From NCBI GenBank assembly GCA_963811305.1, contig CAWEQU010000003.1, forward strand, positions 130,688 through 194,687: 64,000 nucleotides of DNA, written 5' to 3'. Source of the DNA: an uncultured Chloroflexia bacterium (GTDB taxonomy: Bacteria > Chloroflexota > Chloroflexia > QHBQ01 > JADMIH01). The translations under genes were made by a program, and so were the position numbers. Below, piece after piece: positions 3,299 through 48,772 of the stretch. Positions within the stretch are counted from its first letter, which is position 1. Every line of letters starts with the position of its first letter. The notes beneath the pieces are model-generated. The model made no database searches. It saw only the letters and a list, made by a program, of their open reading frames with translations, and had not been told where the DNA came from.

Positions 3299-3652
3299 TC
3301 AAAGCCCCTGGCCAGAATGGAGCACTATTCCTCTGGTCATCACCTCTGTAGCGAAGGTGAACTCACGCTCCAAAGCCGACTGTAATTGCCTAGGTTCAAG
3401 CACAAGAATATCCAACGCAAGGGGGTGGTCAACGGCAGCCGCAATATTTGCAGCAGCACGTAATGGCCTGCCTCCAGCCTCCATTATCACGAGCAGGTCT
3501 AAGTCGCTATCTTCTCTTGGCACTCCATACGCATAGGAGCCAAACAAGATCACTTTCTGAGGGTGAAAGCCATTTACGATCTGCTGAACAAGCTTCTGTA
3601 AGACTTCAGAGTGTAACTTAGTTGTAATATCAGCCGTGTTGGTTGAATTCAT
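3299..3652 (-). CDS. Nucleotidyltransferase-domain protein (MNT-type, Pol-beta superfamily); no adjacent HEPN partner detected
   Basis: Motif ILFGSYAYGVPREDSDLDLLVI is the GSxxxGxxxxxSDxDL minimal NTase signature. Confidence 0.7.
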   Translation of the reverse strand: MNSTNTADITTKLHSEVLQKLVQQIVNGFHPQKVILFGSYAYGVPREDSDLDLLVIMEAGGRPLRAAANIAAAVDHPLALDILVLEPRQLQSALEREFTFATEVMTRGIVLHSGQGL

Positions 3653-3789: not shown

Positions 3790-3892
3790 CTAACCGATAC
3801 TACCTTCCATCTGCAACTCGATCAGCCTGTTCAACTCAATCGCGTACTCTAGCGGGATTTCCTTCGTGATTGGCTCGATGAAGCCGTTGACT
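3790..3892 (-). repeat. Duplicated copy of the sufB 3' end (last ~34 codons plus stop), ~95% identical to 4655-4757 with only synonymous differences
   Basis: Direct comparison: the copy translates to [34 protein letters not shown], identical to the SufB C-terminus. All 5 nucleotide differences are silent. There is an upstream in-frame stop and no start codon. Confidence 0.8.
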
Positions 3893-3915
3893 ATCAACCA
3901 TCTCTTTTGTATTTG

Positions 3916-4302
3916 CTACCACAGAACTTCTACTGGGTATTGTGCGAATACCGCATCCCCACTGAGCAGCACAATACCTTCCACTTGTGCCTGGGTGATG
4001 AGCAGACGGTCGAACGGGTCTCTATGGTGCATGGGAAGGTTATCCAAGGCGAGTACATGCGGTAATTCAACAGGAAGTACCCGAAGGCTGTTCGATTGCT
4101 GATGGCTTGCTATGAGATCAGCGAGGGGCATAGCTAATTGCAATTTGCCAAGCTGATGCTTGATTTGTATCTCCCAGACGCTGGCCACGCTAAGTAATAA
4201 GGTATTTGCCTGGTCTTGGCACAGGGTGAGCACCCTTGGTGATAGCCTGGCAGGCTGGCTATCCCACCAAATGAACGTATGAGTGTCCAGCAGCAGCTTC
4301 AT
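3916..4302 (-). CDS. vapC: Type II toxin VapC (PIN-domain ribonuclease)
   Basis: MKLLLDTHTFIWW...D...LLITQA pattern typical of PIN/VapC. ATGA overlap with the upstream antitoxin gene. Confidence 0.75.
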   Translation of the reverse strand: MKLLLDTHTFIWWDSQPARLSPRVLTLCQDQANTLLLSVASVWEIQIKHQLGKLQLAMPLADLIASHQQSNSLRVLPVELPHVLALDNLPMHHRDPFDRLLITQAQVEGIVLLSGDAVFAQYPVEVLW

Positions 4303-4553
4303 GCCTCCCCAAGCCAGAACTCGTCGGGTAGAGGGTCATCGAAGTCTTCGCTGGTCCAGATGGCGCCGGGATGTAGACCGGCGATGCGCTGTGGCCGCTC
4401 TTGCTCGCCATTGACCGGCACAATGCGGGCCAATGTTTTAGCACCGTCGGTAAGGATTACCTCAGTGCCTTCAGCCACCAGAGCTAACAATCTGGGCAAT
4501 TGTGTTTGGGGGTCTCGCACGTCAACAGTTGTTATAGTCATTTCTGTGTCCAC
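4299..4553 (-). CDS. vapB: Type II antitoxin (Phd/YefM-like) partner of VapC
   Basis: 84-aa ORF with 4-bp overlap to vapC. N-terminus MTITTVDVRDPQTQLPRLLALVAEGTEVILTDGAKTLARIVPV resembles Phd/YefM antitoxins. Acidic C-terminal tail. Confidence 0.6.
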   Translation of the reverse strand: MDTEMTITTVDVRDPQTQLPRLLALVAEGTEVILTDGAKTLARIVPVNGEQERPQRIAGLHPGAIWTSEDFDDPLPDEFWLGEA

Positions 4554-4645
4554 CTCCTATATGCCACCGCCTGCTACAATTATACAAGAAAGGGTGGCCC
4601 AACATGGACCACCCCTTCCAAAGATAAACCGCAGATTGCAGGCTA

Positions 4646-6061
4646 TTATCCGATAGACCCTTCCATCTGCAACTCGATCAGCCTGTTCAGCTCGATTGCG
4701 TATTCCAGCGGGATTTCCTTCGTGATTGGCTCGATGAAGCCGTTGACTACCATCGAAGTGGCTTCATTCTCGGAGATGCCGCGAGACATCAGGTAGAATA
4801 GCTGGTCCTCGCCGACCTTCGAGACGGTGGCCTCGTGCTGTATCGTGGTCGAGTTGTTCGCCACGTTGATGGTCGGGTAGGTGTCGGAGCGGGAGGTGTC
4901 GTCCAGCAGGAGCGCGTCACACTTGACGTTGGCCTTGCAGTGGTGCGCGTCCTCGGCTACCTCAAGGAGGCCACGATAGGTGGCGCGCCCCGTGCCCTTC
5001 GAGATACTCTTGGAGACGACGTTGGAGGTCGTGTAGGGGGCCTTGTGGACCATCTTCGCGCCCGCGTCCTGGTGCTGGCCGTCGCCCGCGAAGGCTACCG
5101 ATAGCACGTCGCCCCGCGCCCCAGGCTCCATCAGCCACACGGCGGGGTACTTCATGGTGAGGCGGCTGCCCAGGTTGCCGTCCACCCACTCCATCGTCGC
5201 GTCGCGGTAGGCAGCGGCACGCTTGGTCACGAGGTTGTAGACGTTGTGCGACCAGTTCTGGATGGTGGTGTAGCGCACTCTCGCGCCTTCCTTGACGATG
5301 ATCTCAACGACGGCAGAGTGGAGCGAGTTGGTTGTGTACGTAGGCGCGGTGCAGCCCTCTACGTAATGGACGTAAGAGCCAGGCTCGGCGATGATGAGCG
5401 TGCGTTCGAACTGGCCCATGTTCTCGGCGTTGATGCGGAAGTACGCCTGTAGAGGCACGTCCACTTTGACGCCTGCGGGGACGTATACGAATGACCCTCC
5501 TGACCACACGGCGGAGTTGAGCGAGGCGAACTTGTTGTCGCCCGCGGGGATGATGGTGGAGAAGTACTCCTTCACGATGTCGGGGTACTCGCGAACTGCC
5601 GTGTCCATGTCGGTGAAGATGACGCCCAGCTCCTCCAGGTCTTCGCGCAGGGAGTGGTAGATTACCTCGGATTCGTACTGAGCGCCCACGCCTGCCAGGT
5701 ACTTCTTCTCGGCCTCCGGTATGCCCAGGCGGTCGAAGGTGTTCTTTACCTCGGCGGGCACGTCGTCCCAGCTTGTGCTGTTTCTGTCCGAAGCCTTCAC
5801 GTAATAATAGATGTCGGAGAAGTCAATGTCGTTCAGCCAGCCACCCCACTGGGGCATCGGCTTGTTCTCAAAGAGGCGCAGGGCGCGCACCCGGAAGCGG
5901 GTCATCCACTCCGGCTCGCCCTTCATCGAGGAAATCTCGCGCACCATGGCTTCGTCCAGCCCCTTGCGGGACTTGAACGCGTAATTCTCCGGCATAGAGA
6001 AGCCATAGCGATAGCCTTCAGTAGCAAGCCCTATCTCAGGGGTCTTTGTCTCAGCAACCAT
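4646..6061 (-). CDS. sufB: Fe-S cluster assembly protein SufB
   Basis: Strong similarity across the full length to SufB (…[19 protein letters not shown]…[14 protein letters not shown]…[10 protein letters not shown]…). Start chosen at MVAETKTP with GGGAGGT RBS upstream. Confidence 0.85.
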
Positions 6062-6218
6062 TTTACTAACCTCCCGGTCCAATACCAGCACGGTTCGTGC
6101 CGCAACCATTCTTTATGTTGTACAATGCTCTGTGTTACTCAGGTATGATACACGTTAAGTATACTCTAAAAATGCCTATTTTTCAATGTTTAGACAGCTT
6201 TAACTGATTTTAGTAGTT

Positions 6219-6279
6219 GGACGATAGACGATAGACGATAGACGATAGACGATAACTTTGAACCTTGAACTTTGAACCC
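6219..6279. repeat. Word arrays: (GACGATA)x5 then (TTGAACC)x3
   Basis: Direct reading ggacgatagacgatagacgatagacgatagacgataactttgaaccttgaactttgaaccc, in the divergent promoter region between sufB and the GT1 gene. Confidence 0.85.
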
Positions 6280-6281
6280 TT

Positions 6282-7379
6282 ATGAACATCGCTCTCGCGC
6301 ATGACGACTTGATACAATATGGTGGGGCCGAGCGTGTGGTGGATGTGCTACACGACATCTATCCCGACGCGCCTTTGTACACCGCTGTGTATGCGAAGGG
6401 GCAGATGCCTGCGCATTACAGGCGATGGAAGATTTACACGTCGTTTATGCAGAAGCTGCCTGGCATAGCTAAATTCCACCAATTGTACCTCCCCCTCTAC
6501 CCTACAGCCTTCGAGACGTTTGACCTGTCGGGGTACGATGTTGTGTTGAGCAGCAGCAGCCGCTTCGCCAAGGGGGTTATCACGGAGGCTGACGCCCTTC
6601 ACGTTTGCTATTGCCATGCGCCGATGCGCTTCGCGTGGAACTACCACAGCTACATGGAGGGGGAGCGCGCCGCGAGCAAAGCGCGCTTCGTCTTGCCCCT
6701 GGTGATGAACTATGTTAGACTCTGGGACGAGGCTTCGGCAGGGCGGGTGGACGCCTATATAGCCAACTCGCTTGTCACCGCTCGCCGCATACGCAAGCGC
6801 TACAGGCGTCAGGCTACGGTCATAAATCCGCCCGTGAATACGAGTTTGTATAAGCCCAGGTCAGACGGTAGCGTGGAAGATTACTTCCTGATTGTGTCGC
6901 GCCTGATACCGTACAAGCGGATAGACCTCGCGGTGGACGCCTTCAGCAAGCTGGGTCTGCCTCTGAAGATTGTGGGGAAGGGACGGCAGGAAGCGGAGTT
7001 GCGGGCAAGAGCCGGGTCCAATATAGAGTTCGTAGGCTCGGTATCGGACGAGAGGCTCAAGGCTCTGTACGCGGGGTGCAAAGCGTTCATCTTTCCGGGG
7101 GAGGAGGACTTCGGCATATCGCCCCTGGAGGCGCAAGCGTCAGGCCGTCCAGTGATAGCATACGGCGCGGGCGGCGCGCTCGAAACGGTTGTGCCTGGCG
7201 TGACCGGCGCGTTCTTCAGCGAGCAGACACCGGACGCCCTGGCCGAGACCGCCAGCCGATTCAACCCGCGACTGTACGATCCATCCGCCATACGCCGCCA
7301 CGCCGAAGGCTTTGATACAGAGGTGTTCAAGCGGAAAATAGCGGAATTTGTTGGACGGACGACGGACGATGAAACGTGA
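6282..7379 (+). CDS. Glycosyltransferase family 1 (GT4-type)
   Basis: C-terminal EEDFGISPLEAQASGRPVIAYGAGG is the GT1 E-x7-E motif region. The last 6 codons (TTDDET*) are encoded by a word array. Confidence 0.8.
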   Translation: MNIALAHDDLIQYGGAERVVDVLHDIYPDAPLYTAVYAKGQMPAHYRRWKIYTSFMQKLPGIAKFHQLYLPLYPTAFETFDLSGYDVVLSSSSRFAKGVITEADALHVCYCHAPMRFAWNYHSYMEGERAASKARFVLPLVMNYVRLWDEASAGRVDAYIANSLVTARRIRKRYRRQATVINPPVNTSLYKPRSDGSVEDYFLIVSRLIPYKRIDLAVDAFSKLGLPLKIVGKGRQEAELRARAGSNIEFVGSVSDERLKALYAGCKAFIFPGEEDFGISPLEAQASGRPVIAYGAGGALETVVPGVTGAFFSEQTPDALAETASRFNPRLYDPSAIRRHAEGFDTEVFKRKIAEFVGRTTDDET

Positions 7380-7476
7380 AACGTGAAACGTGATGACGGA
7401 GTACATACTTCCATAAAATAAACTCTGCGAACTCTGCGTCTCTGCGGTGAATTTACTTTCTGTCGTCCGTCGTCAA
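7354..7476. repeat. Word arrays (GACGGAC, GAAACGT) plus a conserved ~80-bp composite element (copy 1)
   Basis: Region gagtacatacttccataaaataaactctgcgaactctgcgtctctgcggtgaatttactttctgtcgtccgtcgtc is near-identical to 57690-57773 and ends with the inverted word TCGTCCGTCGTC. It lies in the 5' leader of the wzz-like gene. Confidence 0.8.
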
Positions 7477-7488
7477 AAAAGGAGAATC

Positions 7489-8229
7489 ATGGAGTTACGG
7501 CAATACTGGAACGTCATAATGAGAAGGCGGTGGCTGGTGCTGGCTATCGCGGTGCTGGCTACGTTGTTCAGCGCCTTTTCGTTCTTCACTTCGGTCAGGC
7601 AATACAAGGCTGAGACTATCTTTACGGTCAGACAGCAGAATACCCCAACCGATCCGACGAAGATATTCACATTCAATGACTACTACAACTGGATCGCTTC
7701 AGAGTACCTCGTTGACGACTATACGCAGATCGTAGAGAGCGATGCGTTTGGGCAGAGCGTACTTGACACCATCAAGAAAGAGGTGCCCGCGGGCAACATA
7801 GTAGTCAGCGACACCACGAAGCTCATGGTCGAAGTTGATAGGATGAGGCCTAAGAACGTTAGCGACGTCGTAGGCGCGGAGCGCCGTCACAGGGAGTTGC
7901 GCGTCTTCGCTGAAACTTCAAGCAGGGACCTCACTAAAGCTATATTGGAAGGATCGAGCATCGTGCTCACCGAAGGTCTGATGAAAGTCTATAGAGGCGA
8001 GAATACGGACAGACCGATTATCGCGCAGATAAACACCGTGACTAATGACGACATGACCTCAAGCGTGTCTAAGGACATTACCAACGCGATAATCCGCGTA
8101 ATCATGGGCCTGGTCGCCGCCCTTGCTATAGCCTTCTTGCTTGAATACCTCGATAATAGTGTCCGGGACGAAAGGGACGCTCGTAAAGTGCTCGATCTTC
8201 CTGTGATTGGGGCGATACCGAGGACGTAG
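7489..8229 (+). CDS. Polysaccharide co-polymerase (Wzz/CpsC-like chain-length determinant), paralogue 1
   Basis: Strong RBS aaaggagaa. N-terminal TM, and C-terminal TM plus LEYLDNSVRDERDARKVLDLPVIGAIPR tail typical of CpsC/Wzz PCP-2b proteins. Confidence 0.65.
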   Translation: MELRQYWNVIMRRRWLVLAIAVLATLFSAFSFFTSVRQYKAETIFTVRQQNTPTDPTKIFTFNDYYNWIASEYLVDDYTQIVESDAFGQSVLDTIKKEVPAGNIVVSDTTKLMVEVDRMRPKNVSDVVGAERRHRELRVFAETSSRDLTKAILEGSSIVLTEGLMKVYRGENTDRPIIAQINTVTNDDMTSSVSKDITNAIIRVIMGLVAALAIAFLLEYLDNSVRDERDARKVLDLPVIGAIPRT

Positions 8230-8270
8230 TTCAAGGTTCAAAGTTCAAGGTTCAAGGCTCAAGGCTCGAG
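8230..8270. repeat. (TTCAAGG)n word array, inverted relative to 8722-8770
   Basis: gttcaaggttcaaagttcaaggttcaaggctcaaggctcgagg. Confidence 0.85.
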
Positions 8271-8280
8271 GAGTGAGCAC

Positions 8281-8754
8281 ATGACGAGTGCCCGGCAGTT
8301 TGAGGAACTTGAAGTCTGGAAGAAGGCACGATTAGTAACAAGAGAGATATATGCTGTAAGCTCGAAGGGCGCATTTTCACGGAACTTCGGCCTTTGTGAT
8401 CAAATTCAGCGGGCAGCTGTATCCGTAATGTCCAATATTGCAGAAGGATTTGAGCGAGAAGGCAACAAAGAGTTTCGACAGTTTCTTGCCCTAGCAAAAG
8501 GCTCCGCAGGTGAAATTCGCTCCCAGCTATATGTCGCACTGGACGCGGGCTTCCTTCAACAAAGTGAGTTTCAGCAGCTATATAACTCTGTAATCGAATT
8601 GAGCCGTCTCATAGCAGGTTTGATGCGTTACCTCAATGCCTCTGATTACAAAGGAAACAAATTTAAGGAAGCTTCAGGTCCAGAGTACCACACAGAAGGT
8701 CCCGACAGTCAGCTAGAGCGTCTTGAACCTCGAACCTCGAACTTTGAACCTTGA
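8281..8754 (+). CDS. Four-helix-bundle protein (TIGR02436; former 23S rRNA intervening-sequence protein family)
   Basis: EELEVWKKARLVTREIYAV...FGLCDQIQRAAVSVMSNIAEGFEREGNKEFRQFLALAKGSAGEIRSQL matches the family consensus. The C-terminal tail is encoded by the TTGAACC array. Confidence 0.7.
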   Translation: MTSARQFEELEVWKKARLVTREIYAVSSKGAFSRNFGLCDQIQRAAVSVMSNIAEGFEREGNKEFRQFLALAKGSAGEIRSQLYVALDAGFLQQSEFQQLYNSVIELSRLIAGLMRYLNASDYKGNKFKEASGPEYHTEGPDSQLERLEPRTSNFEP

Positions 8755-8770
8755 ACTTTGAACTTTGAAC
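8722..8770. repeat. (TTGAACC/TCGAACC)n word array
   Basis: cttgaacctcgaacctcgaactttgaaccttgaactttgaactttgaac. Confidence 0.85.
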
Positions 8771-9475
8771 AAACACATGCAGCTTGACCTGAGACAAATA
8801 TGGAGCGGCCTGCGTAAGCGGTGGTGGCTGGCGTTGTTGGTGATGCTGTCGGCTGCCGCCGTCGCGTACCTTTACACCAATGCACAGCCGCGTGTGTATC
8901 AGGCGCAGGTGACACTTGTGGCAAAGCCTGTACCTCCTGATAATGGTCTCATAGAGGCGATCAAGAAAACTATGAGCACCTACGCCCAGGAGCTGGGGAG
9001 CAAGAGCCTCTGGACGTCTGTGGTAGATGGTAATTTGATGCGCACGGTGGACCTGAGCGCATTGTCCGGCCAGATAAAGGTGCAGCCACGTCCCGACCAA
9101 AACTCACTCGTTATGACGGTGGATAATCAAGACAGTGTGTTGGCCGCACAGATAGCAGAGGCTATCTCGCAGGCGTTCGTGGAGCGCCAGACCGCAGAGA
9201 ACCAGGCTCTGGCGAGTGGTAATAAGGTCGTGTGGGTGATAGCCCAGGCTGCCGAAGTGCCCTCTCAGCCCTACCAGCCTCGCCCGCTCTTGTATGCGGG
9301 TGCGGCGGCTTTATTTGGCCTTATACTCGGCCTTCTATTGGCAATTGGGCTTGAGTTGCTGGACACGACGATTAAGACTCCTGCGGATATCAAGCAGTAT
9401 ACGGAGCTTAACACGCTGGGGATAATTCCACGTGCTAGCAAGGACGAAGGACGAAGGACGAAGGACGACGGATAG
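8765..9475 (+). CDS. Polysaccharide co-polymerase (Wzz/CpsC-like), paralogue 2
   Basis: N-terminal TM (WWLALLVMLSAAAVAYLY), and C-terminal TM plus LELLDTTIKTPADIKQYTELNTLGIIPR. The final residues (KDEGRRTKDDG*) are encoded by the (GGACGAA)n array. Confidence 0.6.
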   Translation: MNKHMQLDLRQIWSGLRKRWWLALLVMLSAAAVAYLYTNAQPRVYQAQVTLVAKPVPPDNGLIEAIKKTMSTYAQELGSKSLWTSVVDGNLMRTVDLSALSGQIKVQPRPDQNSLVMTVDNQDSVLAAQIAEAISQAFVERQTAENQALASGNKVVWVIAQAAEVPSQPYQPRPLLYAGAAALFGLILGLLLAIGLELLDTTIKTPADIKQYTELNTLGIIPRASKDEGRRTKDDG

Positions 9476-9528
9476 GGATTCTCTATCACCTATTACCAGC
9501 TACCAGCCACTAACTACCGGAGGGACAA

Positions 9529-10233
9529 TTGGCAAGACGAGTCAAAACTAAGGAAGAGAGCAGCGCGGGCCTGGTTGCCCTTACGGAGCCGAGGTCGGCG
9601 GCGGCGGAGGCGTTTCGCGCTTTGCGGACCAATATTCAGTTCGCCAGCCCCGATAAGCCTGTGCATACCATACTGGCGACCTCTACCAGTCCCGATGACG
9701 GCAAATCCACGACCATCGCCAATCTTGCGATAACGTTCGCCGCCGCCGGGTCGCCTACGATATTGGTAGACGCCGATTTGCGCCGCCCGCACCTGCACAA
9801 GCTCTTCGGCCTCTCCAACGAATCGGGCCTTACTACTCTCGTGACGGAGATGGCGCGCAAGGATGGGGGCCAGGACGTTGACCTGCCTTTGCAGGATACG
9901 GAAGTGCCTAATCTGCAGGTGCTGACGAGTGGACCTGTGCCGCCTAACCCCGCCGAGATATTGGCTTCGCAGCGCATGGCCGATATACTGGCCCTCCTCC
10001 GTAACAAAGCTGAATACGTGCTGATAGATACCCCTCCCGTGATCGCCGTGACGGATGCAGCCGTGCTGGCTCCCCGCGTAGATGGAGTCTTCCTGGTGTT
10101 AAATGCAGGTAAGACGCGACGCGACCTTGCCTCTAAAGCACGCGACATCCTCCGGCAAGTAAACGCCAACCTCCTGGGCGTAGTGCTGAACAACGCCAAG
10201 CTCGATAAGAGCGCGTACGAGTATTATGGCTAG
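9529..10233 (+). CDS. BY-kinase (CpsD/CapB-type tyrosine-protein kinase); putative TTG start
   Basis: Walker A PDDGKSTT, Walker A' VDADLRRP, Walker B VLIDTPP. Lies downstream of the CpsC-like genes. Confidence 0.8.
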   Translation: MARRVKTKEESSAGLVALTEPRSAAAEAFRALRTNIQFASPDKPVHTILATSTSPDDGKSTTIANLAITFAAAGSPTILVDADLRRPHLHKLFGLSNESGLTTLVTEMARKDGGQDVDLPLQDTEVPNLQVLTSGPVPPNPAEILASQRMADILALLRNKAEYVLIDTPPVIAVTDAAVLAPRVDGVFLVLNAGKTRRDLASKARDILRQVNANLLGVVLNNAKLDKSAYEYYG

Positions 10234-10312
10234 GAATCAGGAGTCAGGAATCAGTAGAATATGAGTCCTAATCCCTGATTCCTGACTCCTGACCCCTAAT
10301 CCCTGACCCCTA
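10234..10312. repeat. Inverted word arrays forming a hairpin (GAATCAG/GAGTCAG with CTGATTC/CTGACCC)
   Basis: ggaatcaggagtcaggaatcag...aatccctgattcctgactcctgacccctaatccctgacccc, between the kinase and the phosphatase. Confidence 0.85.
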
Positions 10313-10314
10313 AA

Positions 10315-11094
10315 GTGATAGACATCCACACTCATATCATCCCTGACCTCGATGATGGGCCGCCCGATATGAAGACTTCGGTTGGTATGGGGCGCGTGGC
10401 GGCTGAGGAAGGGATAGAGGCTATCATCTCCACATCGCATAGCGAAGAAGCCTCCAATGTAGGGCTTGAAGCTATGCAGGCACGCTTGCTGGCTGTGCAG
10501 GGAGCGTGGGTCGCGGCGGGATTGAATATACGCCTTGAGCTGGGGGTGGAGATTTTCTTGCGACCTGACACGCCCGCTGCTCTCAAGTCGGGCGCGCTCT
10601 GGACGCTTGCGGGAAGCCGGTACGTATTGGTCGAAACTCCGTACCAGCCGTGGCCCACCTACGCCGACCAGACGCTATTCAACCTGCAACTGGCTGGATA
10701 CATCCCTATCCTCGCCCACCCTGAACGCTATATCCCTATTCAAAATGACCCCAACCGCATGTATGCTCTTGTGGAGAGGGGTGTGCTGGCGCAGGTGACG
10801 GCAGCCGCGCTCCTGGGCGAGCATGGGCCTGCATCGAGGCGATGCGCCGAGACGTTGGTGCGTCACAACCTGGCTCATTTCCTTGCGTCGGACGCTCACG
10901 GGCTGACGGTGCGGAGGCGTATGCCGCAATTGCGCGAAGCGTTGAGAGTCGCTGAAGGATTGGTAGGTGCGGAAGCTGCTCGTGCGTTAGTTCAGGACAA
11001 CCCTGCAAGGATACTTGCGAATATGCCTCTCGAAGTCACCCCTGAAAGGGTAAGCGGGAAGAAGTGGTCTTTAGGGGGCCTGTTCAGAGGCTAA
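10315..11094 (+). CDS. PHP-family protein-tyrosine phosphatase (CpsB/YwqE-type); GTG start
   Basis: N-terminal VIDIHTHIIPDLDDGP matches the CpsB MIDIHxHILPGxDDG motif. Confidence 0.75.
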   Translation: MIDIHTHIIPDLDDGPPDMKTSVGMGRVAAEEGIEAIISTSHSEEASNVGLEAMQARLLAVQGAWVAAGLNIRLELGVEIFLRPDTPAALKSGALWTLAGSRYVLVETPYQPWPTYADQTLFNLQLAGYIPILAHPERYIPIQNDPNRMYALVERGVLAQVTAAALLGEHGPASRRCAETLVRHNLAHFLASDAHGLTVRRRMPQLREALRVAEGLVGAEAARALVQDNPARILANMPLEVTPERVSGKKWSLGGLFRG

Positions 11095-11141
11095 GAATCT
11101 GTTCAAGAACAGAGTTGAGACGAGAGCGCCTATCAATAACG

Positions 11142-11252
11142 AAGCACTATTCTGCCTGTCATTCTGAGCGAAGCGAAGAATCTCCGAGCTTGGACGTGTG
11201 GGGGCAGCTTTAGATTCTTCGCTTCGCTCAGAATGACAGGCAAAAGCGTATT
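11142..11252. repeat. Long perfect hairpin element, GTCATTCTGAGCGAAGCGAAGAATCT family (copy 1)
   Basis: cctgtcattctgagcgaagcgaagaatctcc...loop...agattcttcgcttcgctcagaatgacagg. Related copies at 37938-38032 and 63071-63096. Confidence 0.85.
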
Positions 11253-11303
11253 GTTCTTAAATAGCCTTTTAGGAAAGCGTCTTACTTAAGGGTAACGATG
11301 CGA

Positions 11304-11567
11304 TTATCGCGGGAGCGCAGCCCTTATTTTTGTTTCAAGCTCCTCGATCTCTTGCATCACCTGTTTATGAGGCACCAGGATTGCTGTGCCTGAGCGGTAA
11401 TCTTGCAAGGCCTCCCTGACTGCCTCAACTTGCCATGATTGCTCATCTACGTAGTTTATTATCGCTTGCTCAATAACCCACGATTTAGGACGCTCCATTG
11501 AGGCAGCGAGCGCATCTAACTTGGCAGCAAGCTCATCTTCTAAGTAGATAAATATGATTTTTGGCAT
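11304..11567 (-). CDS. Ribbon-helix-helix (CopG/ParD-like) small DNA-binding protein
   Basis: 87 aa. N-terminal IIFIYLEDELAAKLDALAASMERPKSWVIEQAI is the RHH pattern. No toxin partner found. Confidence 0.45.
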   Translation of the reverse strand: MPKIIFIYLEDELAAKLDALAASMERPKSWVIEQAIINYVDEQSWQVEAVREALQDYRSGTAILVPHKQVMQEIEELETKIRAALPR

Positions 11568-11600
11568 AGCACGTCCCGATAATCAACTTTACTCTGCTGT

Positions 11601-13750
11601 TCATATACTAAACAGCGATCTTACGGTCCTTGCTGCACGCTCAGGCTGTAGTTCTGCTTTCAGCAGCGTATGGGGCGTTTCGCCCGCGACGATAAGCACC
11701 GCAGTATCGTAGGTCGTGCCGAGGCCATCTATCGTGAAGCTTACGTCGCCTGAGGGGCCGACCTCTACGGGCTGTATCTCGAAGCCATTCCTATTGAGCT
11801 TTATGGCGGCAAGGTAAATTGCTGGGGGAGGGAGTTGTGGATGCGGGCGAAGCCCGTACTCTGCCAGCCGGTGTCGCTCTCGGCGTCATCGACGTAGCCA
11901 AGCTCAGGGATCGAGATGTCGTCTACGGCGAACCCCTGCGCGTTGTAGCCGTCGTCGGTGATGTACTCGAAGCGGAGCATCACCTCTTTGCCCGCGTATT
12001 CGCCCAGGTCTATGCTTTCCTTTAGCCATCCGCCAGGGTCGGCACCTGATTGGTCCTTGCTCTTGCCCGTATAGCCGTTGCCCTGGTTGGTGCCGTTGGG
12101 GTTATCGGTAGTGGTGTACTCACCTTTGAGGCTGGCCCAGGTTGCGCCGCCATCCGTGGAAGCTTCTACGTAGGCGAAGTCGAAGGTCTTCTCGACGTCG
12201 AACCACGCGTAGAAGTCCAGGGTGGCCGCTTGCAGGTTCCGAAGGTCGAACGCCCGCGTCATGTTCATATTGCTCACGTCGCCCCGGTTGCTCCACCATA
12301 TAGAAGAGCCACTGTGCGCGGGTGGGTCTATCACTCGTGTTTCGGTTTTGCCCGTAAAGTGAACATTCAATGAATTGCCGCTGTCCGGCGCGCTCAACTC
12401 TATGTAGTCAGTCCCGAACTGCGACACCGTACCCCTGTAGTCCTTCGGGTAGCTGCCCACCCTAACGTGTGGCGATACGCTCACGTCGCGGTCGGGGTAA
12501 TCGAGGCCCTCTCTCGCCGCACTTTCCTGACCATCCAGGAGGTTTGCTACCGTCCATCGCTCAAACACGTCCTTGAACTGCTCCTGCTTGCCGAGGGCCT
12601 TTAGCGCATTGTCAATCGCATCGATGCCCGTGCCTGTGGACGATACGATGTCTTTAAGTATTTCTTTGCCGCCGTAGTGCGCTCGTATGTAATCAAGGAA
12701 GAGGAAGGCCGCGCCGTAATGGGGACCCGACTCATTGGGGGTGGCCTCCCAGGCGTTGAGTCTGTATATCGGTGTCGATCATGAAATCGAAGTCTACACC
12801 TACGTCCTCGTAGCCGTTGAGCGCGCTCGCCAGCACCGCCATTCCTTCGTTGAGCCATACGTCGTGATTGGCGTGCTCGTTCCAGTGGATCATATGCTGG
12901 TGCTCGTGGGCGAGGGTGCTTTCGACGCCGAACCAGCCGCTGCCGGTGTTGATATAGATCATCTCGCGCTCATTGCTGAACGGGTTGATAGCGCGGGTGT
13001 ACTCGTCCGCGGACGAGTAATATCCGCCGACATTCGGTATGTCGGCGAAAAGCACGGTGAGGCGAGGGTCGTTGTCCACGCCTGGCGACCACTCGGAGCC
13101 AAATAGCGAACGATTGTTGGGGTATATTTGCTCATCGAAGGCGAGCGCCGCATCCTCTAGCGCGGACCTGTCAATAGGTTTGCCGTCCTGAGCGTACCAG
13201 TAGGCGTGGTCGGTGACCCTCTGTATTGTGGCAGTGACTGTGTAATACCTGTGCTCGCTGATGTTGTTGACGTAGAAGGTATCGGTATGACCCTCCTGGT
13301 AATTACTGGGTGGGTTGCCTGTAGTGTGAGGGATGGGGGTTGTGCTCTTCAGCTTGAGTCTCTGGACGATGGAGTAAAGGTCGCGCTTGGGGACCTCGAT
13401 GCTATCCAAAAGCCGTAGCGTGGCATCCGCATCAGCAGAGACGGTGGCGTTTGGCGAAGGCGTAATGTCACCTGCCCCTACGCTGGGCGATGCTACAGGT
13501 GTAACGCTTGCCGTGCCGAGGCTAATGGCGGTAGGGACTGGCGTGCCCAGGCGAGTTGGCTGGGAGGTTACCTGCGCGATGACGGTGGGCGTGGCCGAAG
13601 GTCGTGGCGCCAACCTAACAGGTATGTTGATGCGATAACCAGCGCCGATACGCCAATTACGAGCGCAATGGTAAGAGCTATCAGCTTCGGTGTGCGGTCA
13701 GGGGGCTGTGGGGTATAGTTGCCGGTAGGTTGATATGGGGGAAGTGACAT
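11601..13750 (-). CDS. M6-family (immune inhibitor A-like) metalloprotease; reading frame interrupted by at least three apparent frameshifts at G/C homopolymers
   Basis: HEHQHMIHW zinc motif. Contiguous homology continues across frames: N-terminal signal/TM in ORF 13568-13750, catalytic part 12732-13613, then 11801-12770, then the C-terminus at 11601-11800. The junctions lie at ggggg/ccccc runs. Confidence 0.6.
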
Positions 13751-13756
13751 AGTGTG

Positions 13757-14251
13757 TTATTGCTCTTTCAAAGGCTCAGAGAATAGGAGCCAGGCGAAGT
13801 TTATGCCGAGGAATATCATCGCTGAGAAGAGGATACCCTCTAGCTCCAGGGGCTGGAGGGCGATACCCAGGTCTTGCCCCACCTCCGGTCTCAACGCGAT
13901 CAGGGTTATGAGTGCATACAAAGGCACCGTTATCCATTGCACCACGCGGGGTATCTGTATACTTTCTTCCTCTACCTTTACGGCGTTGATGACTATCACG
14001 GTGGCAATCATACCAACCAGTCCAGCAATACCGAAGGTCACTTGCCACAGGTATCTGGCGTCACCGGCGATGAGGGCTACAAGGGACATCATTCCTGGCA
14101 CGAGGAAGTAGAGCGACACTGCGTGCGCCATCCGCCGGTATCCCGGTTTTCGCATCCACTCTGCATGTCTGAACTGCACCACGGCCCACCAGAATCCCAG
14201 GAGGGTAAAACATAACTGTGCAGTGGTGGCGTAAAAGGTCTCTACGGACAT
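13757..14251 (-). CDS. Hypothetical polytopic membrane protein (~4 TM)
   Basis: Hydrophobic ORF. Start chosen at MSVETFY. The upstream part of the six-frame ORF is translation of the (GACGATA/GGACGAT) array (SIVHRPSS...). Confidence 0.45.
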   Translation of the reverse strand: MSVETFYATTAQLCFTLLGFWWAVVQFRHAEWMRKPGYRRMAHAVSLYFLVPGMMSLVALIAGDARYLWQVTFGIAGLVGMIATVIVINAVKVEEESIQIPRVVQWITVPLYALITLIALRPEVGQDLGIALQPLELEGILFSAMIFLGINFAWLLFSEPLKEQ

Positions 14252-14263
14252 ACCTTTGCTCTC

Positions 14264-14351
14264 GGACGATAGACGATAGACGATAGACGATAGACGATGG
14301 ACGATGGACGATGGACGATGGACGATGGACGATGGACGATGGACGATAGAC
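14264..14351. repeat. (GACGATA)x4 plus (GGACGAT)x7 word array
   Basis: Direct reading. Confidence 0.9.
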
Positions 14352-14511
14352 CATGAAGTCAATAAAAGGATAGCATATTGTGGGGTGGGTGGCGAGTTCT
14401 AGCCGATAAATGAAAGAGGTGTTGGGCGCGCCCAACACCTCTTTCATATGTAGATACAGAGTGTAGGTACAGGAATTGGACTTTCGCTTACGGGTTTGCA
14501 CACGCCTGCTG

Positions 14512-16704
14512 TTAGCTTTTGTATGTTAGCAGCCTCATCCCGTTGAGGGTTACCAGGAGGGAGACGCCCATGTCGGCCAGGATCGCGCCCCATAAGGGGA
14601 GCATACCGAGGCTTGCGAGAATGAGGGCTATTACTTTCGTCGCCAGCGATACGCCTATATTGGCCTTGATGACGCCTAATGCCTTGCGTGAGAGGGTTAT
14701 CGCGTAGGGGAGGCGCGAGAGGTCGTCGCTCATCAGGGCGACCTCAGCGACTTCCAATGCGGCATCTGTGCCTGCGATGCCCATGGCGATGCCCACGTCG
14801 GCGGTGGCGAGTGCAGGCGCGTCGTTCACGCCGTCGCCTACCATTGCTATGGGGCCATGCTCCGCGGCGATGCGCCGGACTGCTTCTACCTTCTCGGCTG
14901 GGAGAAGCTCAGCGTGGCAGCTATCTACATTGAGCTGGCGTGCTATCGCCTCGGCTGTTCGGCGGTTGTCGCCTGTGAGCATGGCTATATGGCGGATACC
15001 TGATTGGCGTAGCTCCTCAATCGCGGCCTGGGCGTTGGACCTGGACCTGTCGGCGAGGGCTATTATTCCCTGCACGCCGTCAGTAGTGCCCACAAGCACT
15101 GCGGTATTTCCCTCTTCATTGAGAGCGTCGAGCGTGGAAGCTATGCCATTTAGCTCGATGTGATGGTCCCTGAAGAGGCGCGGGCTGCCTACATAGATTG
15201 TCTCGCCACCTATGTCGGCGCGCGCACCCAGGCCGGGCAGGGCGGTGAAGCCAGTTGCCTCTAGCGCAGATGGGTTCTTGTGAAGATCGCGCGCCGCGTG
15301 TACGACGGCTCTCGCCAGGGGGTGCTCTGAGCGGGATTCAGCCGCAGCAGCCATTGTGAGCAACCTATCCTCGTCGCCGTCAGCAGCGCGAACGGCGACT
15401 ACCTGCGGGCGACCCTCGGTGAGAGTGCCGGTCTTGTCGAAGGCGACGACGCGCACCTTGCCCAGCGCCTCCAACGCCTCCCCGCCCTTGATAAGGACGC
15501 CATGCCTGGTAGCGGCACCGATTGCGGAGACGATGCTGACGGGCGTCGAGATGACCAGCGCGCACGGGCACGCTACCACCAGCAGCACCAGCGCGCGGTA
15601 ACCCCACTCCGCGAAGGGCTGTGCTAACAAGAGCGGGGGTATCAGCGCCACGAGGGCCGCTCCCGCTATGACCAGGGGCGTGTAAATCGCTGAGAAGCGG
15701 TCCACGAACTGCTGGGAGGGTGCGCGGCGGGCCTGGGCCTCCTCGACCATGCCGATGATGCGGGCAAGGGTGGTATCACCGGCGGCGCTTGTGCTTCGCA
15801 TGGTAAGCACGCCAGGCCCATTGATGGTCCCGGCGAAGATTTGCGATCCAGGTTCTACGTCAACCGGCACGCTTTCGCCCGTTATGGGGGACTGGTCGAT
15901 TGAAGATATACCCTGCAAGACGATGCCATCGAGGGGAACACGTTCGCCCGGACCAACCAGCACGGTCTCTCCAGGCAGTACTTCCTCTACGGAGACGCGC
16001 ACCTCACGCATGATGGGTAAGCCTGAGCTATTGTCGACGCGGCGCACAAGCGCGGTGTCCGGGGAGAGGTCCATTAGCGCGCGTATCGCGCCGCGCGTCT
16101 TTTGGAGGGTATACGCTTGCAGGGTGCCGCCGAAGGCGAAGAGGAGGACTACCGTAGCGGCTTCGGCCCAGTCGCCAAGCGCAGCCGCGCCTATCGCCGC
16201 CACGGACATGAGCAAGTTCATATCGGCCCGCCCGACGCGCAACGCGAGCAGACCCGCTCTTGCGAAGCCCAGACCGCTTATCACGATTGCCACTGCGTAG
16301 AGGGAATTGACAAACCAGGGAGCGACTCCGAAGAGCGATAGGGCGAAAGCAGCCAGCGCGAATAAGGTTCCAACGCCTGTGGTCAACACCCGGCGTTCTC
16401 GCCGCCAGAAGGGGACTTCTATCAGATGAGCACGCGCCTGGAGTGGAGTAGCTCTATAGCCAGCCTCGTTTACCTTTCGCTCGATGGTTGTTTCGATGCT
16501 GTTGAGCTTGCCTTTTGTGGGAACGACGGATAGCCTTGCAGCGCCGAAGTTCACCCGTGCTGTTTCCACGCCGGGTAGCGCGCCCACCGCCTTCTCTATG
16601 GTGCGCGCGCAGTCCCCGCAGTCCATCCCTTCGATGGTGAACTCAAGGAGGGCATTCGATTTTGGATTTTGGATTTTGGATTTTGGATTTTCTGTGGTAA
16701 TCAT
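14512..16704 (-). CDS. Heavy-metal (Zn/Cd/Pb-type) translocating P1B-ATPase
   Basis: N-terminal HMA GMDCGDC, CPCALVISTP transmembrane motif (ZntA/CadA type), DKTGTLT phosphorylation site and GDGVNDAPAL. The first 16 codons (MITTENPKSKIQNPKS) are encoded by the TTTTGGA array. Confidence 0.85.
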   Translation of the reverse strand: MITTENPKSKIQNPKSNALLEFTIEGMDCGDCARTIEKAVGALPGVETARVNFGAARLSVVPTKGKLNSIETTIERKVNEAGYRATPLQARAHLIEVPFWRRERRVLTTGVGTLFALAAFALSLFGVAPWFVNSLYAVAIVISGLGFARAGLLALRVGRADMNLLMSVAAIGAAALGDWAEAATVVLLFAFGGTLQAYTLQKTRGAIRALMDLSPDTALVRRVDNSSGLPIMREVRVSVEEVLPGETVLVGPGERVPLDGIVLQGISSIDQSPITGESVPVDVEPGSQIFAGTINGPGVLTMRSTSAAGDTTLARIIGMVEEAQARRAPSQQFVDRFSAIYTPLVIAGAALVALIPPLLLAQPFAEWGYRALVLLVVACPCALVISTPVSIVSAIGAATRHGVLIKGGEALEALGKVRVVAFDKTGTLTEGRPQVVAVRAADGDEDRLLTMAAAAESRSEHPLARAVVHAARDLHKNPSALEATGFTALPGLGARADIGGETIYVGSPRLFRDHHIELNGIASTLDALNEEGNTAVLVGTTDGVQGIIALADRSRSNAQAAIEELRQSGIRHIAMLTGDNRRTAEAIARQLNVDSCHAELLPAEKVEAVRRIAAEHGPIAMVGDGVNDAPALATADVGIAMGIAGTDAALEVAEVALMSDDLSRLPYAITLSRKALGVIKANIGVSLATKVIALILASLGMLPLWGAILADMGVSLLVTLNGMRLLTYKS

Positions 16705-16732
16705 TTGTGGGTTCTTATTCTTTGCGTTTAGG

Positions 16733-17140: not shown

Positions 17141-17257
17141 TTTTGCTCCTGTTCGATTTAGCAATCACTTAATCGTTAATGATATTATATGATATTTTGT
17201 GTGGGATAGCAACCTTTTTAGTGTGGATAAGTGCGTAGGATCGAGGTAAAGGGTAAA

Positions 17258-17320
17258 CCTTCTCTTCCTTCTAAATATTGGCTCCAGCGGAGCCAATATT
17301 TAGAAGGAAGAGAAGTTGGG
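17258..17320. repeat. Long perfect palindrome (AT-rich arms, GC loop) in the arsR upstream region
   Basis: cttctcttccttctaaatattggctccagcggagccaatatttagaaggaagagaag. Confidence 0.8.
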
Positions 17321-19059: not shown

Positions 19060-19137
19060 GGACGAAAGATGAAGGACGATAGACGATAGACGATAGACGA
19101 TAGACGATAGACGACGGACGACGGACGACGGACGATT
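19060..19137. repeat. (GACGATA)n plus (GACGGAC)n word array upstream of murA
   Basis: Direct reading. Confidence 0.9.
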
Positions 19138-48770: not shown

Positions 48771-48772
48771 AT

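Follow-up and report, generated by a model that had tools for sequence, protein, structure and literature searches.

A probable small dispersed repeat with a CTCTGCG core in intergenic DNA of an uncultured Chloroflexia bacterium

Results

Composite Elements at the GT1-wzz and DUF951 Loci

Two full copies of a composite element are present in the window (herein the whole 64-kb stretch of DNA that was analyzed). Copy A (7354-7474) occupies the spacer of the co-directional GT1 and wzz genes, and copy B (57619-57762) lies between divergent promoters, upstream of the DUF951 gene. Full copies have a layered build. Outermost are inverted arms of 7-nt words (GGACGAY and RTCGTCC), which pair to form a long stem; next comes an A/T-rich head; and innermost lies a core of 17-34 nt, in which two to four CTCTGCG words stand at a fixed 9/8-nt spacing and end in GGTGAA. 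The alignment of copies A and B has 69 columns at 87% identity and an indel of one 9-nt unit; their 43-nt right halves differ by a single base (98% identity). The original prediction, made from the letters of the window, of a repeated composite of ~80 bp is thus borne out, and the gene names that it gave (GT1, Wzz, DUF951, TrkA_N, and SDR) are correct.

Copy A reads along the plus strand. Its left arm (GACGGAC x2.3; 7354-7369) is the partner of the right arm and is directly followed by a TGAAACG x3.4 array (7370-7393) within which the GT1 stop codon falls. The head CATACTTCCATAAAATAA (7404-7421) includes a -10-like hexamer, TAAAAT; the core, CTCTGCG-AA-CTCTGCG-T-CTCTGCGG (7423-7447), has three words at 9/8-nt spacing; and the tail GTGAATTTACTTTCT (7447-7461) leads into the right arm GTCGTCCGTCGTC (7462-7474), which ends 4 nt 5' of the wzz ribosome-binding site. 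Copy B, also on the plus strand, consists of a (GACGATA) x9.9 left arm (57619-57687), a head (57694-57711), a two-word core TCTCTGCG-T-CTCTGCGG (57712-57728), the same tail GTGAATTTACTTTCT (57728-57742), and the right arm GTCGTCCATCGTCCGTCGTC (57743-57762), which stops 2 nt short of the extended -10 of the DUF951 gene (ATG at 57802). Both copies had been said to follow a (GACGATA)n array; this holds for copy B and not for copy A, where GACGGAC and then TGAAACG words take its place. The expression signals proposed beside the two copies exist at slightly different positions, the wzz ribosome-binding site AAGGAG at plus-strand 7479-7484 (ATG at 7489) rather than 7477 and the TATAAT-like box, in the form of the plus-strand extended -10 TGATATAAT, at 57765-57773 rather than 57776.

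Four additional modules bring the core to other parts of the window. The 16-mer CTCTGCGTCTCTGCGG has four sites with up to two mismatches (7432+, 31213-, 36236-, and 57713+), against a chance expectation of 0.13, and none of 100 shuffles reached four. Copy C (31177-31248, minus strand) is inverted upstream of trkA-N; it has a three-word CTCTGCG core (31213-31237) and a head (31238-31248) in the minus-strand reading, adjoins a plus-strand GACGATA x4.3 array (31177-31207), and is complementary at 94% over 32 nt (31209-31240) in the inverted-repeat comparison. It has no complementary arms and is unstructured (z +0.2). Copy E (36153-36251, minus strand), likewise unstructured, has a GACGAAA x3.6 array (36153-36177) beside two tandem modules, one reading CTCTACG-T-CTCTGCGG (36236-36251) and the other, a variant, CTTGGCG-TC-CTTCGTA-AT-CTTGGCG-T-CTTGGCG-TTTAAT (36185-36217). 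Copy D (17603-17750, plus strand) begins with a GACGAYA x5 array (17603-17644) and contains short arms TGATGCGTGAT and ATCACGCATCA (17650-17660 and 17740-17750), a head TTATAAAAT (17691-17699), and the variant core CTTAGCG-TT-CTTGGTT-AT-CTTTGCG-T-CTTGGCG-TTTAAT (17700-17732). Its complementarity to 36179-36230, in the copy E region, is 83%. The inverted partial copies noted at the first inspection are present at 31213-31237 and 36236-36251, and the modules at 17700-17732 (plus strand) and 36185-36217 (minus strand), with CTTGGCG and CTTTGCG words, had been overlooked.

The Arms Close Long Hairpins

In all five full copies, A and B and three from a sister species described below, the arms close a stem on folding (ΔG -40 to -63 kcal/mol, z -3 to -7.3) and leave a loop of 55-75 nt. 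For A and B (-40.3 and -48.4 kcal/mol, z ~-3), this agrees with the earlier proposal that the terminal word pairs with the upstream array. A transcript or single-stranded DNA would thus carry a very stable hairpin of ~17-30 bp with the core in its loop; the predicted stem measures ~17 bp in copy A, ~25-30 bp in the L123 ortholog and L124, and ~28 bp in L002. Since sites with a module only fold like shuffles (z ~0), it is the arms, rather than the core, that give rise to the hairpin.

Heptamer arrays are common throughout this DNA. Tandem Repeats Finder (TRF) reports more than 40 period-7 arrays within the 64 kb, with a GACGA-type word at 13 loci, and other intercistronic heptamer hairpins of the window have z-scores of -4 to -8. 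Only the arms of the composite share the character of these arrays (tandem 7-nt words, intergenic, many loci); the CTCTGCG core has a period of 9/8 and is not a short tandemly repeated repetitive (STRR) sequence. GACGA-type arrays lie on the G-rich strand without exception. Free GACGA arrays follow the GC skew, and the orientation of the composite does so less strictly, L002 being the exception. In at least one case (10262-10311), a hairpin arm moved a start codon, and one hairpin seems to have grown out of a single Shine-Dalgarno-containing word, as judged from the L176 locus against the window.

Copies Turn Over between Relatives

The sister-species metagenome-assembled genome (MAG) GCA_035274425.1, whose syntenic DNA is ~86-88% identical in nucleotides to the window, carries an orthologous copy at GT1-wzz (L123:9853-9996) and, at other loci, two full copies (L001 and L002) and one core-only module (L123:881-904). 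L001 and L002 are nonorthologous sites with unrelated flanks, and modules are present or absent among relatives; both observations support the proposal of a mobile or recruited module. L002 matches copy A at 54/54 bases, well above the figure for syntenic DNA. Pairwise identity among the five full copies is 83-88%, with orthologs no closer than paralogs. A 22-mer of the composite matches the sister MAG only among species-representative genomes, and a Chloroflexia-specific 20-mer has no match among metagenome contigs; therefore, the full composite is lineage-restricted.

At the same sites, more distant relatives show the same architecture spelled with other words, an array hairpin of another kind, or no element at all. 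The core words shift jointly at orthologous sites: L124 has CTTTGTG, and L127 CTTTGCG, in place of CTCTGCG. Complementary arms are kept in 5/6 elements across the two orthologous sites, as judged by comparison of whole arms, these being register-ambiguous tandem arrays; three arm word sets occur there (GGACGA/TCGTCC, GCGTGAAAC/GTTTCACGC, and GGGTTAG/CTAACCC). Close relatives, then, keep copies at a given intergenic site while words and copy number change and the arms stay complementary. Modules and hairpins are also gained or lost: L176 lacks a module both at the trkA-N site and at the kinase-upstream site, the copy C module is missing at its site in L176 and L177, and copy E is missing in L176. 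No transposition event is directly visible, because the GT1-wzz and DUF951 copies are vertically inherited, and the differences between relatives at the other sites could reflect loss instead of gain.

Local replication slippage could in principle have produced such words independently at each site, with neither common descent nor function. The abundance of heptamer arrays in the window, the variation of words and copy number between relatives, and the hairpin that appears to have grown from one Shine-Dalgarno-containing word all speak for it. However, the nonrepetitive head CATACTTCC.TAAAATAA and the tail GTGAATTTACTTTCT are common to unrelated loci in two genomes, L002 and copy A coincide over the whole of their 54-base match, and four phyla share a structured core with a sharp boundary (see below). 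As an account of the composite, slippage is contradicted and very improbable; for the changes in the arms it is a reasonable explanation.

The CTCTGCG Core Recurs across Phyla and Brackets Small Genes

Beyond Chloroflexota, the core was found in more than 120 metagenome contigs (GC 0.38-0.75; Acidobacteriota, Desulfobacterota, and Cyanobacteriota) and in 47 viral contigs, that is, in at least four bacterial phyla, Chloroflexota included, and on phage contigs; named hosts are Pyrinomonadaceae, Ca. Desulfatibia, and Sphaerospermopsis (L114). Across phyla it spans 25-40 nt, CTCTGCG-NN-CTCTGCG-N-CTCTGCGG-TGAA, with an optional fourth word upstream and no conservation beyond, so that the outer end is sharp. 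Outside the search pattern, the conserved bases directly after GG are T (96%) and A (74%). Hosts over the whole GC range have the same word sequence and spacing, and the spacer bases vary. Modules stand alone at 76 sites and have an inverted partner within 150 nt at 66; in inverted modules the GGTGAA ends point outward. No paper containing any of six representative core 16-mers was found among searchable papers, and the CTCTGCG repeat is apparently undescribed so far.

Clustering of neighboring genes at ~165 loci gave as recurrent families only GxxExxY genes (PF13366, PD-(D/E)XK) and related phage structural genes; transposase families were not recurrent among them. All eight GxxExxY genes in core loci adjoin a module, and 5/6 complete ones are bracketed by inverted modules. 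In one such cassette (L074) both arms carry the CTTTGCG variant. A phage gp49_66 gene is bracketed likewise. In the Chloroflexia lineage the loci examined supply no mobilizing enzyme, because transposase, RAYT, and GxxExxY genes are absent from the window and from ~125 kb of related loci; Pfam assigns small open reading frames (ORFs) of the window to PIN, MNT, and RHH toxin-antitoxin-like genes and to no recombinase. A bracketed gene does occur close to copy A, in the spacer after its own: a PF05635 (IVS-type four-helix-bundle) gene at 8229-8770 is enclosed by inverted heptamer arrays, as are IVS-type four-helix-bundle genes in L123 and L125, and L124 has an empty hairpin at the site of this gene. 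No mention of flanking repeats was found in the literature on GxxExxY, PF13366, or PF05635.

The constancy of words and spacing would also be expected if the CTCTGCG words were recognized, in DNA or RNA, by a sequence-specific protein that several phyla have in common, be it a regulator, a nucleoid protein, or the nuclease of the cassette itself, with (CTCTGCGNN)3 as its putative target and the element kept for binding. The joint switching of all words in L124 and L127, the matching change in both arms of the L074 cassette, the sharp boundary, and the solo modules, which need no hairpin, fit such a protein. Nevertheless, the analysis yielded no candidate protein, relatives lose sites without replacement, and the neighboring genes show no link by functional class. 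We regard binding as the reason for the element's conservation as unlikely; it is in any case compatible with a mobile cassette rather than opposed to one, because a mobilizing enzyme also binds the ends of its element.

Orientation to Genes, Promoters, and RNA Signals

If the element were a portable promoter or 5' leader, the head would give the -10, transcription would start at the CTCTGCG words, and words, tail, and arm would form the leader. Copies A, B, L001, and L123 all face a downstream gene start, and the right boundary abuts the GT1-wzz ribosome-binding site (in three genomes) and the DUF951 -10. The head contains TAAAAT or TATAAT in 4/5 full copies (A, B, L123, and L001), and two of these have promoter-like sites in sense orientation where 0.1-0.2 are expected (L123, TAGACG-18-TAAAAT, 9/12; L001, ACGACA-18-TATAAT, 10/12). 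Yet the consensus scan found no promoter inside copy A or B, and in L002 the promoter-like site is antisense only; a σ70 promoter module would be expected to place its -35 and -10 hexamers 16-18 nt apart and in one position and orientation across copies. The extended -10 of DUF951 lies downstream of the element and is retained (TATGNTATAAT) in L125, where a quite different, unrelated hairpin replaces the element, and also in L127 and L128.

Orientation points the same way. L002 lies antisense within a gcv operon (glycine riboswitch, minus strand), L123:881-904 is antisense between two ABC-transporter genes, and copy C too is antisense to or faces away from its neighbors; at the trkA-N and kinase-upstream sites relatives lack the module altogether. 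In the wider family, flanking genes are convergent at 20 sites and divergent at 6, with (+,+) at 20 and (-,-) at 22, counts that rest on crude ORF gene calls. Because copies occur in both orientations to flanking genes, also inside operons, the proposed gene-specific leader or promoter is poorly supported, and we consider it distinctly improbable. A stop codon in a fixed frame within GGTGAA or GGTTAA was considered as well and rejected, as the frames differ.

The suggestion of a small RNA fares worse. Some 80 nt of conserved sequence with a stable predicted fold would suit a small non-coding RNA gene or a riboswitch-like cis-regulatory RNA, but Rfam 15 has no family at the window or at the elements in 20 loci with either gathering or permissive thresholds (permissive matches being chance-level snoRNAs, E ≥0.4), and none of the five full copies has an intrinsic terminator (GC-rich stem, short loop, and T run). 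A search of the window for tRNA genes returned zero. The stem is made of tandem words of variable length, the loop region lacks conserved pairing, and orientation to genes is not constant. An RNA gene or riboswitch at these sites is thus highly implausible.

Discussion

A Probable Gene-Less Derivative of Hairpin-Bracketed Cassettes

Taken together, the data indicate that the element probably belongs to a family of small, non-coding repeats dispersed in an uncultured soil Chloroflexia lineage and is not a device of the genes that it precedes. On this reading it would descend from a mobile cassette bracketed by hairpins, carry no gene, and function chiefly as a stable stem-loop. The window copies would be gene-less or solo derivatives of such cassettes, and they may spread or be regenerated through slippage, template switching, and copying that depends on hairpins. 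The host would be affected chiefly in structure, by a long stem of double-stranded RNA placed between cistrons or beside promoters. An intercistronic role of this kind does not apply to copy B, which lies between divergent promoters. By analogy with the intervening sequences of 23S rRNA, this stem is a putative site for RNase III-type processing or stabilization; insertion into transcribed spacers would be tolerable because the stem would serve as such a site.

A wider reading, which we put forward tentatively as less likely than not, makes the CTCTGCG module the end repeat of miniature gene cassettes that would form a hitherto undescribed family, transferred between phyla and carried by phages. 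GxxExxY would be the cargo and possibly the mobilizing or homing enzyme, and solo or gene-less offspring would include the Chloroflexia composite. The relation between repeat and gene would resemble that of REPIN and RAYT with another enzyme fold, and a bracketing stem might allow removal at the RNA level, as in intervening sequences, so that insertion inside operons is tolerated.

For annotation, such elements are not to be labeled as leaders, promoters, or small RNAs, and they produce spurious ORFs. Differences in array length will disrupt assemblies and alignments in this Chloroflexia lineage. Intergenic hairpins with arms of tandem words are a case in which complementarity persists while relatives swap the words themselves. 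The consistent bracketing of GxxExxY genes by the core offers a concrete and testable route both to the function of PF13366/TIGR04256, a very common family of uncharacterized proteins, and to the movement of very small repeats between genomes.

Comparison with Known Repeat Families

Intergenic heptamer repeats have been described as TAACTGA repeats (PMC4679880) and as (GATAGRA)n "satellites" in Chloroflexus aurantiacus (PMC6749651). Neither paper mentions a strand bias like the G-rich-strand placement of the GACGA-type arrays here. As in cyanobacterial STRR, TAACTGA, and Chloroflexus arrays, the words are 7 nt long, tandem, and almost all intergenic, many arrays occur per genome, and word and copy number differ between relatives; the C. 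aurantiacus word is close to the arm word, GACGATA being GATAGAC rotated. The arrays here differ in that they are often inverted pairs closing long hairpins, that they enclose cargo other than heptamers (a CTCTGCG module or a gene), and that the whole composite, beyond the word, was copied between loci.

MITEs are likewise small, non-coding, multicopy, and insertion-polymorphic between relatives, and terminal inverted repeats are present here, GGACGAY(n) pairing with RTCGTCC(n) in 5/5 full copies. Unlike in MITEs, the ends are tandem words of variable length, and no related transposase-bearing element was found. There is no consistent direct repeat indicative of target-site duplication in the flanks of A, B, L001, L002, and L123, and none at the doublets L022, L025, and L026.

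Elhai et al. (2008, Genome Res 18:1484) reportedly described small dispersed repeats, SDR1-8, in Nostoc punctiforme and other cyanobacteria. These are said to be intergenic units of 20-40 nt that nest in heptamer arrays and hairpins, vary in presence between relatives, are widespread in some families, and have neither an encoded protein nor a target duplication. By this description, rather than by sequence, they are like the CTCTGCG module, which also occurs in cyanobacterial contigs (L114) and may be one of the SDR families. The module differs in being an internally repeated 7-nt word at 9/8-nt spacing, found well beyond cyanobacteria and bracketing GxxExxY genes.

REP and REPIN sequences are short intergenic repeats, occurring as singlets and as hairpin-forming inverted doublets, enriched at gene 3' ends and inserted with no target duplication, and REP-RAYT systems include an associated small gene flanked by inverted repeats (PMC3116915). 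Singlets and inverted doublets (76 solo and 66 partnered), the enrichment at gene 3' ends, the bracketed gene, and the lack of target duplication all recur here. A REP unit, however, is itself palindromic, if imperfectly, and has a conserved GTAG-type head, whereas the CTCTGCG module is a direct-repeat array that folds no better than shuffles; RAYT is a Y1 (IS200-like) transposase, whereas the bracketed gene encodes a PD-(D/E)XK (PF13366) protein; and REP families are species-specific, whereas the core is common to phyla and phages.

A parallel for the stem is found in 23S rRNA, where the terminal inverted repeats of intervening sequences form a long stem around nothing or a small ORF and RNase III removes the insertion at the RNA level. 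Ralph and McClelland are said to have described such sequences with a four-helix-bundle ORF (PF05635) in 1993. Copy A at GT1-wzz similarly has a long stem around cargo in a transcribed spacer, and a PF05635 gene is bracketed likewise in the window. The 23S elements lie in rRNA, whereas those described here, known from sequence, lie in mRNA spacers and promoter regions and have arms that are tandem word arrays.

The composite repeat and its copies in the window

We found the two predicted near-identical copies in the window (copy A, 7354-7474; copy B, 57619-57762), with 87% identity over aligned columns and 98% in the 43-nt right half. Read directly on the plus strand, copy A comprises a head (CATACTTCCATAAAATAA, 7404-7421), a core (CTCTGCG-AA-CTCTGCG-T-CTCTGCGG, 7423-7447), a tail (GTGAATTTACTTTCT, 7447-7461), and a right arm (GTCGTCCGTCGTC, 7462-7474); copy B, on the same strand, has its head at 57694-57711, a core with one word fewer (57712-57728), a tail at 57728-57742, and a right arm at 57743-57762. 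The repeat is genuine and beyond chance, the 16-mer core occurring four times in the window versus 0.13 expected, with 0 of 100 shuffles reaching four. The inverted partial copy proposed near 31209 was also borne out (31209-31240; 94% complementary over 32 nt), and two modules with variant words (CTTGGCG/CTTTGCG) that had been missed lie at 17700-17732 (plus strand) and 36185-36217 (minus strand). A GACGATA array had been placed before both copies; it precedes only B, and copy A follows GACGGAC x2.3 and then TGAAACG x3.4. The gene names in the original prediction were correct. The wzz ribosome-binding site and the DUF951 box both exist, at corrected positions: the former is 7479-7484 (wzz ATG, 7489) and the latter is an extended -10, TGATATAAT, at 57765-57773.

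Hairpins belong to the arms

Every full copy is predicted to fold, the left GGACGAY array pairing with the right RTCGTCC words and the head, core, and tail occupying a loop of 55-75 nt. Predicted ΔG is -40.3 (A) and -48.4 kcal/mol (B) in the window and -60.7, -62.1, and -63.4 kcal/mol for the copies at three loci (L001, L002, and L123, respectively) of the sister-species MAG GCA_035274425.1; z for the five full-copy folds ranges from -3 to -7.3. The module-only sites without complementary arms (17600, 31170, and 36140) fold no better than shuffles; it is therefore the arms that make the hairpin, and the core stands apart from it.

Period-7 arrays are abundant across the window, and several intercistronic spacers hold hairpins in which one arm is an array and the other its reverse complement (10225-10318, 31950-32055, 48705-48778, 53702-53785, and 54290-54380; z -4 to -8). 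Free-standing GRCGRNR (GACGATA/GGACGAT) arrays all present the G-rich strand regardless of the direction of neighboring genes. GRCGRNR arrays in the window (examples at 6220-6254, 14265-14348, 19075-19130, 39297-39345, and 57619-57681) number 13 on the plus strand versus 1 on the minus strand, the latter being the right arm of copy B, and in related genomes (L001, L002, L123, L127, and L128) they track the sign of local GC skew. As the arrays follow GC skew and not gene direction, their placement suggests a replication-strand rather than a transcription-strand bias. An AATCCAA x4.6 array (61287-61318) lies inside a 702-aa E1 dehydrogenase/transketolase ORF (60209-62317), an unusual coding-region site for a period-7 array.

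Persistence, turnover, and gain or loss among relatives

Among species-representative genomes, the exact 22-mer has only two matches, L001 and L002, both in the sister MAG; these share the layered architecture of the window copies, but nothing in their flanks resembles the window. Through a Wzz homolog (93% identity) we reached L123, an orthologous locus of the same MAG that is syntenic with window 4201-17213 at ~86-88% nucleotide identity and carries both the orthologous copy of A (L123:9853-9996) and an antisense, core-only module between two ABC-transporter genes (L123:881-904). Copy A and L002 are identical at 54 of 54 bases, which far exceeds the 87% background, so this stretch is under constraint or was copied recently. 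The five full copies are equidistant (83-88% pairwise), with orthologs no closer than paralogs.

The GT1-wzz spacer of a further relative (L124; Wzz 82% identity) holds an element of the same architecture that meets the ribosome-binding site at the same right junction (predicted ΔG -57 kcal/mol, z -7.2); an (GCGTGAAACGTGAT)n array and its reverse complement form the arms, and every core word is CTTTGTG in place of CTCTGCG. The divergent MTase/DUF951 spacer of L127 (MTase 91% identity) contains a homologous module whose words are CTTTGCG and whose junction onto TATGATATAAT is unchanged; that of L128 holds a CTCTGCG pair in inverted orientation, with an insert nested in it; and that of L125 (MTase 91%) has a (GTTAGGG/ATCAGGG)n hairpin instead, without the CTCTGCG core. 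This L125 hairpin (9770-9915; ΔG -83 kcal/mol, z -8.8) is the most stable of all elements folded. Its words are telomere-like (GGGTTAG/GGGATTA and complement). The extended -10 TATGNTATAAT is kept in all four spacers (window, L125, L127, and L128). Arm words are thus replaced between relatives with complementarity kept, core words switch all together at orthologous sites, and these sites tend to stay filled by some array hairpin.

Modules and hairpins also vary in presence between relatives. Module C (31177-31248), sought at the USP/TrkA region, is absent in L176 (TrkA 94% identity) and L177 (89%), as are the kinase-upstream modules in L176. The window hairpin between TrkA-N and TrkA (31950-32055; 27-bp stem, ΔG -51 kcal/mol) is likewise absent in L176 (3495-3535), where a single AGGAGTCAGG word also acts as the Shine-Dalgarno sequence and seems to be the unit from which the array grew.

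The right arm (~50 nt) of a heptamer hairpin in the ParA-CpsB spacer is present only in the window (10231-10318) and not in L123 (12765-12810); it falls 3' of the ATG at which CpsB begins in the sister MAG, so that CpsB in the window now starts at a downstream GTG (10315), its start codon remodeled by the hairpin arm. The Trm112-fused methyltransferase, ~300 aa in all relatives, is split in the window (56635-57539, minus strand) into two ORFs, one of 197 aa (56946-57539) and the other of 109 aa (56635-56964), through a frameshift, pseudogenization, or sequencing error.

The core in other phyla and phages, and the genes it brackets

The pattern CTCTGCG-NN-CTCTGCG-N-CTCTGCGG (22 specified bases) matched at least 120 metagenome contigs and 47 IMG/VR contigs; a rough estimate, not a computed one, puts chance matches in such a collection at well under one. 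Host contigs among the matches listed span 38-75% GC, and exact look-up of flanking proteins gave three hosts: Pyrinomonadaceae (Acidobacteriota), Ca. Desulfatibia (Desulfobacterota), and Sphaerospermopsis (Cyanobacteriota). A profile built from the five full composites aligns with these contigs over the core only. Among the matches listed, conservation outside the search pattern comprises T (96%) and A (74%) directly behind GG, and about half of the sites add a fourth word upstream; because conservation stops beyond these, the outer end of the element, ...CTCTGCGGTGAA, is sharp. For about half of these listed sites, an inverted partner lies no more than 150 nt away. By crude ORF calls on the same matches, sites are mostly intergenic, with 20 in one orientation and 22 in the other between co-directional genes, and 20 between convergent versus 6 between divergent genes.

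When ORFs within 1.2 kb of modules were clustered, GxxExxY proteins (identity checked: PF13366 at E 1e-42, TIGR04256) were the most recurrent neighbor among the loci listed, and no transposase was found there. All eight GxxExxY genes in these loci adjoin a module, and 5 of 6 complete genes are bracketed by inverted modules with GGTGAA ends outward; at one locus (L074) both bracketing arms carry the CTTTGCG variant. Three viral contigs show such bracketing around a phage gp49_66 gene. The function of PF13366 is listed as unknown, and multiple transfers of the family between divisions are noted (PMC3424549). On a public metagenome contig (L068, ~1170-1280; OGVY01009487.1), an Illumina adapter/index (CAAGCAGAAGACGGCATACGAGAT...GTGACTGGAGTTCAGACGTGTGCTCTTCCGATCT) is assembled onto the end, beside a GxxExxY gene.

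A Chloroflexia PF05635/TIGR02436 four-helix-bundle gene (23S-IVS-type) has inverted heptamer arrays on both sides in the window, L123, and L125. The window gene (8281-8754), between two Wzz-domain genes, has (GTTCAAG)n/(CTTGAAC)n arms at 8229-8271 and 8728-8770; the arrangement is the same in L123 (10745-11320), and L125 (19620-20180) uses a different word, (GTACCGA)n/(CTCGGTA)n. At that site L124 (3065-3135) has no gene, and the (AGAAGTT)n hairpin is empty.

Leader, promoter, or small RNA

The original prediction named a mobile or recruited module acting as a leader, promoter, or small RNA. The mobile or recruited part agrees with the dispersed copies at unrelated MAG loci; the functional label is mostly wrong. 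Copies do not keep a fixed orientation with respect to genes: L002 is antisense inside a gcv operon, between two genes on the minus strand, which also carries a glycine riboswitch, and L123:881-904 and window copy C are likewise reversed. Terminator-like sites are absent from the five full copies, and an Rfam search of the window and of the elements at the loci returned no match. Because two MAG copies score as sense promoters, the last word of the arm supplying the -35 and the head the -10, some copies may carry an outward-reading promoter; however, no promoter-like site was found inside copies A and B, and copy B is flanked by a strong minus-strand promoter (TTGACA-18-TATCAT, 57609-57580) and DUF951's own extended -10.

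Other repeats and insertions

A second hairpin repeat family (TTCTGCCTGTCATTCTGAGCGAAGCGAAGAATCT and complement; arms 97% complementary) occupies two window sites (11150-11245 and ~37928-38075) and, in the sister MAG, a different, non-orthologous HMA/HTH_5 spacer (L123 18441-18588); it looks insertion-polymorphic. GC-rich, REP-like palindromes headed by GTAG (GTAGGGGCGTGCCGTCGGCACGCCCC and variants) are found singly and as one inverted pair separated by 164 nt (24495-24571, 36309-36331, 49745-49783, and 49948-49986). Perfect A/T-rich palindromes of 26-29 nt, whose loops span 0-3 nt (e.g., TTTGAAAAAGGATAAAATAAAGGTTCGGC and complement) are intergenic (17259-17315, 29935-29986, 45351-45411, 49828-49880, and 52124-52184) and could be bidirectional terminators or another repeat family.

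A 106-nt direct repeat (3791-3896 and 4647-4752; 91% identity) flanks a low-GC stretch holding a PIN gene (3916-4302, minus strand), with a nucleotidyltransferase gene (3299-3652, minus strand) just outside the left copy. One copy is the 3' end of a 487-aa gene (4646-6109) orthologous to the MAG SufBD gene, and both also match the sister MAG. The arrangement resembles a toxin-antitoxin-type insertion flanked by its duplicated target.

Proposed mechanism and relation to known systems

The element is a layered, hairpin-forming, dispersed non-coding repeat that persists vertically with fast arm turnover and preserved complementarity, and that is gained or lost between relatives. We propose that the window copies derive from hairpin-bracketed cassettes, as gene-less or solo forms whose arms would be altered by slippage and template switching. 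At the host level, the effect would be a long RNA stem in spacers, subject to RNase III-type processing or stabilization by analogy with rRNA intervening sequences, which undergo such processing. In the most speculative step, the GxxExxY nuclease may mobilize the cassettes. No mobilizing gene was found in the Chloroflexia loci, no target duplications at the copies, and no direct transposition event in the compared loci.

Cyanobacterial SDRs are dispersed units nested in heptamer arrays and hairpins, and the similarly nested 25-40-nt dispersed unit recalls them in a comparison by description only. The copy arms are STRR-like heptamer arrays; comparable arrays are described in Chloroflexus, where they are called "(GATAGRA)n satellites" (PMC6749651), and in Beggiatoaceae, cyanobacteria, and Bacteroidetes, where they are TAACTGA repeats (PMC4679880). 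In having singlets, doublets, and a gene enclosed by repeats, the family resembles REPIN-RAYT systems (PMC3116915), whereas the CTCTGCG unit is not a palindrome and the bracketed gene is not a Y1 transposase. A MITE was rejected because neither target duplications nor a transposase partner was found. Given these likenesses and differences, we place the element among small dispersed intergenic repeats, with its core open to a more novel reading. The outcome is more interesting than a leader label: hairpins armed with arrays, and a CTCTGCG end, shared across phyla, that brackets GxxExxY genes.
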